This document shows, in pieces, positions 33,001 to 36,000 of a stretch of DNA of 64,000 bases. How positions within the stretch are numbered: the first letter of the stretch is position 1; the number at the start of each line of letters is the position of its first letter. The position numbers were made by a program. Source of the DNA: an uncultured delta proteobacterium (GTDB lineage Bacteria; Myxococcota_A; Polyangia; Polyangiales; Polyangiaceae); contig CAWHDJ010000018.1 in assembly GCA_963827955.1 (NCBI GenBank), forward strand, positions 1,117,297 to 1,181,296, given 5' to 3'.

Positions 33001-36000
33001 TGACGCTCAACTTCGGCGTCCTCGGCAGGCTCACGTGGCTCGACAGCGAGGGCGAGGCGGGCATCGTGGGGCTGGAGACCGGGGTGATGGGCGTCGGGCT
33101 CGCCAACGACACCAGCGCCACCGGCAAGTCGCTCACGCAGGTGGCGACGGTGCTCGGCGCCGGGCTCGGCGTGCCCATCGCGAACCGCGCGGCCGCGACG
33201 GAGACGTCAATCAACCTTCACGCCTGGTTCGAGCTGGAGCCGGCGCGCTTCTTCGGCGGCGGCAGCGGCAGCCCGGCCGGCTTCGTGTTCGGCCCCAGCA
33301 TCACCATCGGCAACCTCGGGACGAACCTCTGATCGGCCGGCGCGGCCCTCAGCGCGCGCCCAGGCTCCGCGCCAGGAACGCGACGGCCGCGTTCAGGGAC
33401 TCCGCGTCGATGCTGTGGCCCATCGCCGGGCGGTCGAGGCGCTCGACCTTCGCCCCGCGCGCGGCGAGGGCGCGCTGGGCGACGTCGGACTCCGCGAACG
33501 GGATCACGGCGTCGCGCTCGCCGTGCACGAGCAGGACGGGCGTCGTGACGGGATCGTCGGGCGCGTCGTCGTCGAAGCGGCCCGAGAACGAGACCGCGGC
33601 AATCGGCCAGGCCAGGCGCCGCGGTCTTGCTTCATGCCTCCGAGAAAGGGGACGACGGAAGCATGAATGCACGGCTACCGCGCCGGCCACTTGCCGTGCT
33701 CGCCTCGCGTGCGCATGTCCCTACGTCAACCCGCAAACTGAAGGAAATCGAGCGCCAGCTTCAGCGCGTTCTCCTGGCCATGCCTCTTGGCGAGATCGCG
33801 GGCCTCGGCAGCGAGTGTTCGGCGATGAGGGCACCCCGCTCTTTGATGACCGCACTCGTCTCCTGGATGGCGTCACGCACCTCCTCGATAGCGGCAGCAA
33901 CCTCCTCGATGGCGCTACGCACCTCGTCGATGAGGACACGCATCACCGAGGAGATCGCGCTCACCTCCTCGATGGCGTCACGCACCTCCTCGACGAGGAC
34001 ACGCACCATCGAGGAGATCGCGCTCACCTCCTCGATGGCGTCACGCACTTCGTCGACGAGGACACGCACCACCGAGGAGATCGCGCTCACCTCCTCGATG
34101 GCGTCACGCACCTCCTCGACGAGGACACGCACCACCGAGGAAATCGCGCTCACCTCCTCGATGGCGTCACGCACCTCGTCGATGATGACACGCACCACCG
34201 AGGAGATCGCGCTCACCTCCTCGATGGCGTCACGCACTTCGTCGACGAGGACACGCACCACCGAGGAGATCGCGCTCACCTCCTCAACGGCGTCACGCAC
34301 CTCCTCGACGACGACACGCATCACCGAGGAGATCGCGCTCACCTCGTCGATTGGGGCATCTTGCGTCGGCGCGGTACGCTCTCCTGCGAGGAGGCTTCCG
34401 AACGGAGTCTGATGCGCATCTGTTTGGAAGCGCTAGTGAATTTGTGCGTTCGCCGGCGAATGCCGGGAGAGAGGCGACGCGTCAGCGCGCCGCGAGGCTC
34501 CGCGCCAGGAACGCGACGGCCGCGTTCAGGGACTCCGCGTCGATGCTGTGGCCCATCGCCGGGCGGTCGAGGCGCTCGACCTTCGCCCCGCGCGCGGCGA
34601 GGGCGCGCTGGGCGACGTCGGACTCCGCGAACGGGATCACGGCGTCGCGCTCGCCGTGCACGAGCAGGACGGGCGTCGTGACGGGATCGTCGGGCGCGTC
34701 GTCGTCGAAGCGGCCCGAGAACGAGACCGCGGCGATCGGCTGCGGCTTTCGGTGCACCGCCATCCACTGCGAGAGGATGGCGCCCTGCGAGAAGCCCGCC
34801 CACGCGACGCGATCGCGCGGCAGGCCGCGGCGCGCGAGCTCGGCGTCGACGAAGCGCGAGACCCGGAGCGCGGCCTTCCGTACGGTCGCGGCGCGGTCCG
34901 TGTCGCCCTGCCGGCGGTAGGGCCACCACTCGCGGCCCGTCGGCGAGCCGGCGCGCGGGTCGCAGCCGTCGGGGACGAGGACGGCGAGGCGCGGGGAGGC
35001 GCGCGAGAGGGCGCGGGCGACGGGCTCGATGTCGGCCGCGTTCGCTCCGTAGCCGTGGAGCACCACGAGCGTGGCGTCGGCCGGGCCCTGCGCGGGCTCG
35101 ATGACCCGCACGTCCGCGGGTGTGCAGGGCGGGACGTCCTCCGGCTGCGCCGAGGCCGCCGCGGGCGGCGTGGGCGCGGGCGCGGGCGCCGGTTCTGCAC
35201 GGCAGCCGAGCGCGGCGAGGCACGCGAGCGCGCCGGCCACGATCGGGTGACCTCGTCGGGTTCTCGGGCTCATCGCGCGGAGGATAGATCCGATGCCGGT
35301 AGAGGTCGCGGACGCTCGAATCCATGGAATGCGCCTTGCCGCCTGGTGCGTGCGATGCAGCTCACCCCGTACGCGAGCGACCTCGGCACGCTCGCCGCCC
35401 GCCTCCTCCCCGCGCGGTGGAAGGAGGCGGTGCGCGAGCGCGACCATTCACGGCTGCTCGACTGGGTGCCGCGCGCCGTGCGGCGCGACGGGGTGGTGAT
35501 CCTCCAGCACGTCCGCGAGGGGCGTTTCCAGCGGAGCCTCGCGCTCGTCACGGCCGGATCGGCGCTGCTCGCCGGCCTCGAGGTGGCGTACGAGCACTAC
35601 CGGGGCAGCTACGGGCAGCGCAAGATGTACACCCCCGTCGTCGCGGCGCCGGCGCTCGTGGCCGCCTCGCTCTGGTGTGTGGCCTCCCCCGCGCGGTGCG
35701 CTGGGCGCTCCCCGCCATCTCGGTCCTCACGATCGCCGATGGTGTGCTGGGCTTCACCTACCACGTGCGCGGCATCGCGCGGAAGCCGGGGGGCTGGAGG
35801 ATCCCGGTCTTCAACGTCGTCATGGGCCCGCCGCTCTTCGCGCCCCTCCTCTTCGCGGTGCCCGGCTACCTCGGCCTCGTCGCCTCCCTGCTCCGCCGCG
35901 AGGACGACCCGGCCGGCCGCTTCCTGCCCGCGTTCGCGCGCCGGCCGCGCTGGGCGCTCTGGCTGTCGGCCCTGCCACGAACGATCTCCCGCGAGGGGCT

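Follow-up and report, generated by a model that had tools for sequence, protein, structure and literature searches.

How can the 3' end of a gene come to stand twice, on either side of another reading frame, while the gene itself stays intact? The question arises in a 64,000-nucleotide (nt) stretch, here called the window, of contig CAWHDJ010000018.1 (positions 1,117,297 to 1,181,296 of the contig, GenBank assembly GCA_963827955.1, from an uncultured member of the Polyangiaceae). In this window the terminal 259 nt of an esterase gene occur a second time downstream of it, beyond an 874-bp insert that holds an open reading frame (ORF) built from tandem repeats. Our best reading, to which we assign a probability of roughly 0.5, is that the arrangement is the scar of a Campbell-type single crossover, an event that would have added a lineage-specific coiled-coil ORF downstream of the esterase.

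The 3' end of an esterase gene is directly duplicated

The two repeats lie on the minus strand, copy B at 34482-34740, where it forms the 3' end of the intact gene, and copy A, hereafter the orphan, at 33349-33607; read along the plus strand, the order is orphan, insert, gene. Each encodes esterase residues 179-263 followed by the stop codon, and the two agree at 255/259 nt (98.5%). A preliminary description of this DNA, made from the sequence alone, had claimed a direct duplication of a hydrolase 3' end, and the claim was borne out, with a repeat 3 bp shorter than the 262 bp given there. One edge of the homology falls exactly at the esterase stop codon (TCA on the plus strand), the other breaks off abruptly 259 nt into the gene, and no residual homology was detected past either end, where flank alignments were no better than those of shuffled sequence. 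The pair was the sole dispersed (non-tandem) repeat of the window in a self-megablast, and both the duplication and the tandem array between its copies are genuinely present in the sequence supplied.

The four mismatches between the copies fall, in orphan coordinates, at 33358, 33359, 33361 and 33601, and leave an identical core of 239 nt (33362-33600). Three of the variants belong to copy B (34491, 34492 and 34494) and one to the orphan (33601), such that all of them (4/4) occupy the insert-proximal end of their repeat. From orphan to gene, the changes on the coding strand read G>C, G>C, C>G and T>C. The copy B variants alter the C-terminus from ...SLGAR* to ...SLAAR*, and the orphan variant creates, 6 nt from the insert junction, an ATT isoleucine codon, which is rare in this window of 72% GC (guanine plus cytosine) content, where the confident genes use ATT 6 times and ATC 210 times. 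At its insert-distal end, copy B has the common ATC codon and continues as the body of the gene.

Residue -3 of the C-terminus is G in the orphan, in the closest orthologues (P0001 to P0015, of which P0001 is a 91%-identical relative of the esterase) and in most other orthologues of an alignment of 25 homologues (A1), and the intact gene carries a derived A at this residue. It is thus the orphan, and not the intact gene, that holds the orthologue-consensus C-terminus (...LGAR). The orphan also lies 16 bp from the stop codon of a convergent gene ending at 33332. We assessed coding status, here and below, by a codon-usage log-likelihood ratio (LLR) per codon, trained on 12 confident genes of the window, a scale on which real genes score 0.84 on average when read in their true frame (minimum 0.15) and wrong frames reach at most 0.12. 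The ORF extension upstream of the orphan has non-coding codon usage (LLR -1.1), and the orphan itself retains the catalytic Asp and His without the catalytic Ser. The source annotation lists it as a 113-aa ORF (P0243). With neither the Ser region nor a coding-like N-terminal extension, it is a dead fragment, which supports its earlier description as an orphan.

A single crossover would account for the hybrid repeats

The insert-proximal placement of the mismatches and the consensus tail of the orphan together form a reciprocal hybrid pattern, and it is this pattern that leads us to a single-crossover model. A small circular DNA would have carried an allelic copy, H' (ATT ... LAAR*), of the terminal 259 bp of the esterase gene along with 874 bp of other DNA, namely a 139-bp spacer, the tandem-repeat coiled-coil ORF and a 153-bp tail. 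One homologous crossover in the identical core of 239 bp, with the chromosomal copy H (ATC ... LGAR*) as partner, would then leave the intact gene ending in the incoming tail (...LAAR*), with the original tail (...LGAR*) pushed downstream as a dead orphan beside its old neighbouring gene. The esterase would remain functional throughout, and a further recombination, this time of one repeat with the other, could excise the structure again. The anatomy of the locus, the positions of the mismatches, the consensus C-terminus of the orphan, the coding-like frame and the predicted heptad helix come directly from the analysis; that the donor was a circle, which way the event ran and that the ORF is expressed we infer.

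A gene segment directly repeated on both sides of foreign DNA is diagnostic of one crossover with a circular molecule. In E. coli, single crossovers with circular molecules produce duplications of 109-950 bp of the homologous locus (PMC3240628). Such Campbell-type integrants (termed 'SCO' in that study) resemble our locus in the direct duplication of hundreds of bp flanking an insert, in the hybrid nature of each copy, in the preservation of the target gene when the shared segment holds the gene end, and in the reversibility of the event by pop-out; they differ in that our 874-bp insert contains no plasmid backbone, replication gene or marker gene. Homology-facilitated illegitimate recombination (HFIR) likewise joins one homologous anchor to a non-homologous joint, and a possible 6-nt microhomology (ATCGGC) is present at 33601-33607 of our locus. 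However, HFIR typically deletes recipient DNA of similar size instead of duplicating the anchor, with 3-10 bp of microhomology at the illegitimate joint (PMC3240628). The architecture supports the preliminary suggestion of an insertion or recombination footprint. If confirmed in reads, the locus would be a clean natural Campbell-type integration scar in an uncultured high-GC bacterium, and its hybrid repeats and displaced gene end would illustrate how small accessory ORFs can join downstream of a gene without inactivating it. The structure, most likely the relic of a one-off recombination, is fairly ordinary; nothing in it points to a new molecular system, and it opens no long-standing question.

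The junction between insert and orphan (33607/33608) has features that another, less probable origin would explain. An 11-nt stretch of the insert is here an inverted copy of esterase sequence, forming a GC-rich hairpin exactly across the junction (33591-33627; 10 Watson-Crick pairs plus a G-T), and the mismatches between the repeats cluster 7-13 nt from the repeat ends. These features, together with the host-like codon usage of the array, would suit a local rearrangement without foreign DNA, in which the ORF region already lay downstream and the esterase 3' end was copied to a second site, either by illegitimate recombination or by template switching during replication. The quasi-palindrome may have seeded the copying, and error-prone synthesis would have made the junction mutations. 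We consider this unlikely, as it does not account for the consensus tail being on the orphan instead of the gene, nor for the orphan's place next to the former neighbour, and as the hairpin scores only about 3 standard deviations (sd) above shuffled sequence (22 against a mean of 14.6, sd 2.5).

The insert carries no recognizable mobility functions

The insert (33608-34481) has a GC content of about 0.645, against 0.72-0.81 in its flanks. Read on the minus strand, it consists of a spacer of 139 bp that separates the repeat ORF from the esterase stop (34343-34481; GC ~0.65, weak folding with z = -0.9, no promoter or terminator consensus), the ORF itself, and a non-coding-like 3' part of 153 bp (33608-33760) that includes a hairpin with a 12-bp stem (33631-33667). 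Scans for tRNAs, Rfam families, promoters and terminators returned nothing. The preliminary description had raised the possibility of a mobile cassette. In that form the idea was not supported: the ends of the insert bear no terminal inverted repeats, the insert recurs neither elsewhere in the window nor in the fetched loci, and we found no recombinase, integrase, transposase or reverse transcriptase, with Pfam, PHROGs and NCBIfam showing nothing mobile in the insert or in the big neighbouring ORF and no recombinase domain in the neighbouring genes.

The lower GC content, which also counts in favour of a single crossover with incoming DNA, bears on a further reading, in which the locus is the remnant of an integrase-mediated island or integrative plasmid at the esterase 3' end, with the 259-bp repeats as attL and attR and with deletions leaving 874 bp and a truncated coiled-coil gene. 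As with islands at gene 3' ends, where incoming DNA supplies a new 3' end and the former one survives, displaced, as a direct repeat, the target gene is rebuilt here and its original end displaced; moreover, the ORF appears 5'-truncated. A repeat of 259 bp, however, far exceeds usual att cores, the insert is below 1 kb, and neither a recombinase nor a mobile-family match nor a tRNA accompanies it, so that we regard a remnant island as decidedly unlikely.

Other known arrangements share single features with the locus. Orphan C-terminal modules of rhs and cdiA genes are also downstream fragments homologous to the 3' part of an upstream gene and left over from recombination, but our orphan is nearly identical to the working end, no immunity gene is present and the gene is an esterase. 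In diversity-generating retroelements, with their variable and template repeats, a gene 3' end is repeated shortly downstream in the same orientation; we rejected this comparison on the grounds that an 874-bp insert is too small for a reverse transcriptase, that 0/4 mismatches fall at an adenine of the non-coding copy and that the 239-nt core is unchanged. An insertion sequence, a transposon or a miniature inverted-repeat transposable element (MITE) was rejected as well, given the lack of terminal inverted repeats, a duplication of 259 bp where 2-14 bp would be expected, and the lack of another copy. An integron cassette was set aside, its defining parts being missing.

One could also imagine the 1,133-bp unit formed by the esterase 3' end and the insert as an integrase-free minicircle cassette that pops in and out. 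Were this so, the cassette would spread between strains by homologous recombination, sparing the target gene by bringing its own replacement 3' end, and its passenger would be a coiled-coil gene recently born by amplification of a 63-bp unit. We rate this as the least probable of all the readings considered, and highly speculative.

An assembly artefact is an improbable source of the structure

Frame switches interrupt otherwise intact-looking genes of the window near 24865, 25330, 35671, 36205 and 37714, and contigs from apparent sister samples carry Flye-style names. The assembly may thus derive from error-prone long reads of a metagenome, and the duplication could in principle be a false local duplication or a strain chimera, with the mismatches as consensus errors. 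The whole structure, however, measures 1.4 kb, less than typical long reads, and would have been spanned rather than assembled across. In addition, the variant C-terminus keeps the reading frame, and a collapsed repeat, as considered in the preliminary description, fails to explain so short a structure with a boundary placed exactly at a stop codon; and an artefact would still need real molecules in which the insert joins mid-esterase sequence. We consider an artefact improbable, ranking just behind a remnant island.

The tandem array is coding-like in a single frame

Tandem Repeats Finder reported a 63-bp period at 33900-34351, with 7.2 copies and 92% matches, and the array reaches 9 nt upstream of the GTG start of the minus-strand repeat ORF (33761-34342). 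The 193-aa product of this ORF, which would include SAISSVVRVLVDEVR, is made up of seven 21-residue units together with one that is degenerate and a non-helical tail of 25 residues, and its unit, SAISSVVRVLVDEVRDAIEEV, spans three heptads. The tandem array of the preliminary description was therefore confirmed, though not its unit of 66 bp and 22 residues, a miscount that arose because the V of the preceding unit was counted twice.

Three of the six frames through the array are open. Codon usage singled out the minus-strand SAISS... frame, which has an LLR of 0.66, against -0.09 or lower for all other array frames; its GC content at the three codon positions (.75/.33/.87) also fits a coding frame, in agreement with the earlier claim that the array codes on the minus strand. 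A plus-strand H/D-rich frame and an S/T/R-rich frame were ruled out by codon usage. Among the 18 differences of units from their consensus, codon position 2 is hit once, and 11/13 of the amino-acid changes between units are conservative (V/M, V/I, L/V/I, D/E), the last unit also showing D to S.

With half of the frames open and no homologues, ribosome-binding site (RBS) or promoter consensus to mark a gene, the array could be viewed as a non-coding minisatellite whose ORF is a by-product of high GC content and repeat phase. The ratio of nonsynonymous to synonymous change (pN/pS, Nei-Gojobori) would agree with this, being 0.8 in the minus frame and 0.45-0.5 in two others, although the changes are too few to choose a frame. 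Yet gene-like codon usage is confined to the minus frame, the unit differences mostly avoid codon position 2 and are conservative, and a perfect a/d heptad pattern would be unexpected in non-coding DNA. A minisatellite without coding function is very unlikely in our judgement.

The ends of the ORF are less gene-like than the array. Its last 45 codons are not coding-like (LLR -0.19), and a single additional C in the CCCC run at 34355-34358 would put an ATG start in frame (MPPIDEVSAISS...). A possible frameshift would lead to another C-terminus, ...ENALKLALDFLQFAG*, which codon usage does not support, though a frame hidden Markov model (HMM) switches there. Instead of a functional gene, the passenger ORF may be what is left of one that is decaying or has lost its 5' part.

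Several points weigh against a single crossover that delivered a coding passenger. The mismatches form just two independent clusters, and a hybrid pattern would arise by luck about once in four times. An allele that is identical over 239 bp and then has 3 changes within 4 bases at one end is odd, and needs interior gene conversion or mutagenic end processing. Neither the donor nor a circle nor an empty site was found in the loci and databases searched. For the ORF, a pN/pS of 0.8 gives no clear sign of purifying selection, and we detected no RBS or promoter consensus and no independent N-terminus; the sole in-frame start is the GTG that ends the degenerate first unit, with repeat homology (DAPIDEV) extending upstream of it, and the ORF with this start is absent from the source annotation calls. 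Finally, in an assembly rich in frameshifts, base details of the junctions and the ends of the ORF could be errors.

The predicted product is a heptad coiled coil

Single-sequence AlphaFold2 prediction gave one unbroken helix over residues 4-175 (mean predicted local distance difference test, pLDDT, 91) followed by a disordered tail. Hydrophobic power in the repeat protein is 376 at a period of 3.5 residues and 1.2 at 3.667, and in every unit V7/V14/V21 occupy heptad position a and I3/L10/A17 position d; further hydrophobic residues stand at e and g. The protein is acidic (isoelectric point 4.5), with no signal peptide and no transmembrane segment found. On these predictions it looks like a canonical left-handed heptad coiled coil, ~25 nm long if fully extended. 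The encoded passenger would be an acidic helix some 170 residues long whose heptad seam is perfect, putatively assembling into an oligomeric coiled-coil rod, and the hydrophobic residues at a, d, e and g predict a trimer or a larger bundle.

The preliminary description had seen in a 22-residue repeat the hallmark of apolipoprotein-, phasin- or LEA-like proteins. This is refuted by the 21-residue unit, the 3.5-residue periodicity and the sub-threshold profile matches. Apolipoprotein A-I, LEA proteins and phasins share with our protein a helical, amphipathic, tandemly repeated build and a size of about 190 aa, but they follow an 11- or 22-residue (11/3) periodicity, whereas ours is 21 residues and three heptads (7/2); the amphipathic helix of perilipins is also 11/3-periodic, unlike the repeat protein. 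Searches of Pfam, NCBIfam and PHROGs returned only generic coiled-coil matches far below their cut-offs (SMC, Rad50, MCE, tape measure, EzrA, apolipoprotein), including PF01442 (Apolipoprotein) at 21.8 bits against 90 and PF07464 at 21.4 against 36.3, and no phasin model was among the best 25 sub-threshold Pfam matches. The closer likeness is to canonical coiled-coil rods such as SMC and Rad50 arms or tape-measure segments, which share the continuous a/d seam and a single helix of ~170 residues; here, by comparison, flanking functional domains are absent, the 21-mers are near-identical, and beta-branched residues (V/I) are unusually frequent in the core, joined by the additional hydrophobics at e and g. 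The main practical value of the analysis is corrective, replacing a 22-mer apolipoprotein-like repeat by a 21-mer heptad repeat.

Homologues of the repeat ORF were absent from a word-indexed database of 5.8 billion proteins, and HMMER searches of 1.84 billion cluster representatives returned nothing beyond low-complexity helical repeats unrelated to it (84 bits at best), with matches of that class coming from eukaryote-like or phage-fibre-like proteins. Scans of JGI metagenome contigs and viral contigs, a search of plasmid DNA and a tblastn search of phages likewise gave no homologue of the insert or ORF. Judging by these searches, the repeat ORF is a lineage-specific ORFan, and one made of near-identical three-heptad units may be of interest for repeat-driven or de novo gene birth and for coiled-coil design.

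The target esterase and its relatives

The intact gene (34482-35273, minus strand) encodes 263 aa from an ATG at 35273 and belongs to the phospholipase/carboxylesterase family PF02230 (89.3 bits, cut-off 23). The source annotation starts it at a GTG at 35240, and P0242 is the same protein with another start. A Ser-Asp-His triad is conserved across the alignment (S162 in GFSQG, D210 and H242), and an N-terminal lipobox-like motif, ...GC-R-[AS]-[DE]-P, is common to the family; because of this motif, the esterase is probably a lipoprotein.

At the DNA level, four esterase loci of relatives (L004-L007) contained no second copy of the 3' end, no sequence like the repeat ORF and no insert, and the contig of P0002, for which a gene table only was available, has another gene directly after the esterase. 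Orthologous esterase loci with 60-70% identity (contexts of P0002, P0006, P0010 and P0013) showed no synteny with ours, nor did genome and metagenome scans reveal any, and a related contig reached via P0249 (L008) was also non-syntenic. L005, L007 and L008 belong to the ENA ERZ25039xxx series, and run SRR6185437 contains a 91%-identical esterase that ends in ...LGAR. The comparison of orthologous loci that the preliminary description had proposed therefore agrees with an insertion in that the insert is absent after the esterase, but the loci, being non-syntenic, supply no before-and-after pair.

Other features of the window

The frame switches cited above affect a hybrid histidine kinase (24865 and 25330; at about 24865, for example, an extra G in GCGGGTC), a membrane protein with a duplicated domain (35671 and 36205) and a GMC oxidoreductase (37714). 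In total, the frame HMM placed 45 abutting same-strand switches in the 64 kb, a number that includes some true boundaries between genes, and the picture suggests long-read indel errors or widespread pseudogenes. The membrane protein (35341-36416, plus strand) consists of two internally duplicated halves, each with a REG(R/K)FQR... helix region followed by (I/L)A(D/N)GVLGF.YH.RGI.R(K/R)PGG..., and its gene lies upstream of genes for a gluconate 2-dehydrogenase subunit-3-like protein and the GMC oxidoreductase.

Two segments are shared with L008, a 1.23-Mb ENA contig. A 216-bp intergenic element at 27858-28073 is 99% identical to positions 825-1040 of that contig, in an unrelated region, and matches its own reverse complement at 75%, forming an imperfect palindrome; it looks like a MITE or repetitive extragenic palindromic (REP)-like repeat common to related genomes. 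The gene at 41640-42866 (408 aa) lies within a segment (41580-42897) of 92% DNA identity to L008 9442-10760, with wholly different flanks, and is by this comparison a paralogue or a horizontally moved single gene.

Further in-phase tandem repeats occur elsewhere in the window. Just downstream of a DUF6036 nucleotidyltransferase-like gene (26980-27498), an array of 12 copies of a 21-bp unit (27513-27764; 74% matches) is gene-like in two antisense frames, with STKPVEP-type heptads on the plus strand (LLR 0.61) and FVDxSTx heptads on the minus strand (LLR 0.81); the frame HMM picks the minus frame, for which 27790 offers a possible ATG. The remaining arrays comprise 3.7 copies of a 39-bp unit at 2572-2715 (97%), units of 48 or 81 bp in a Y/Q/G/P-rich-looking stretch at 45004-45202, and about 12 copies of 21-bp units at 58163-58590.

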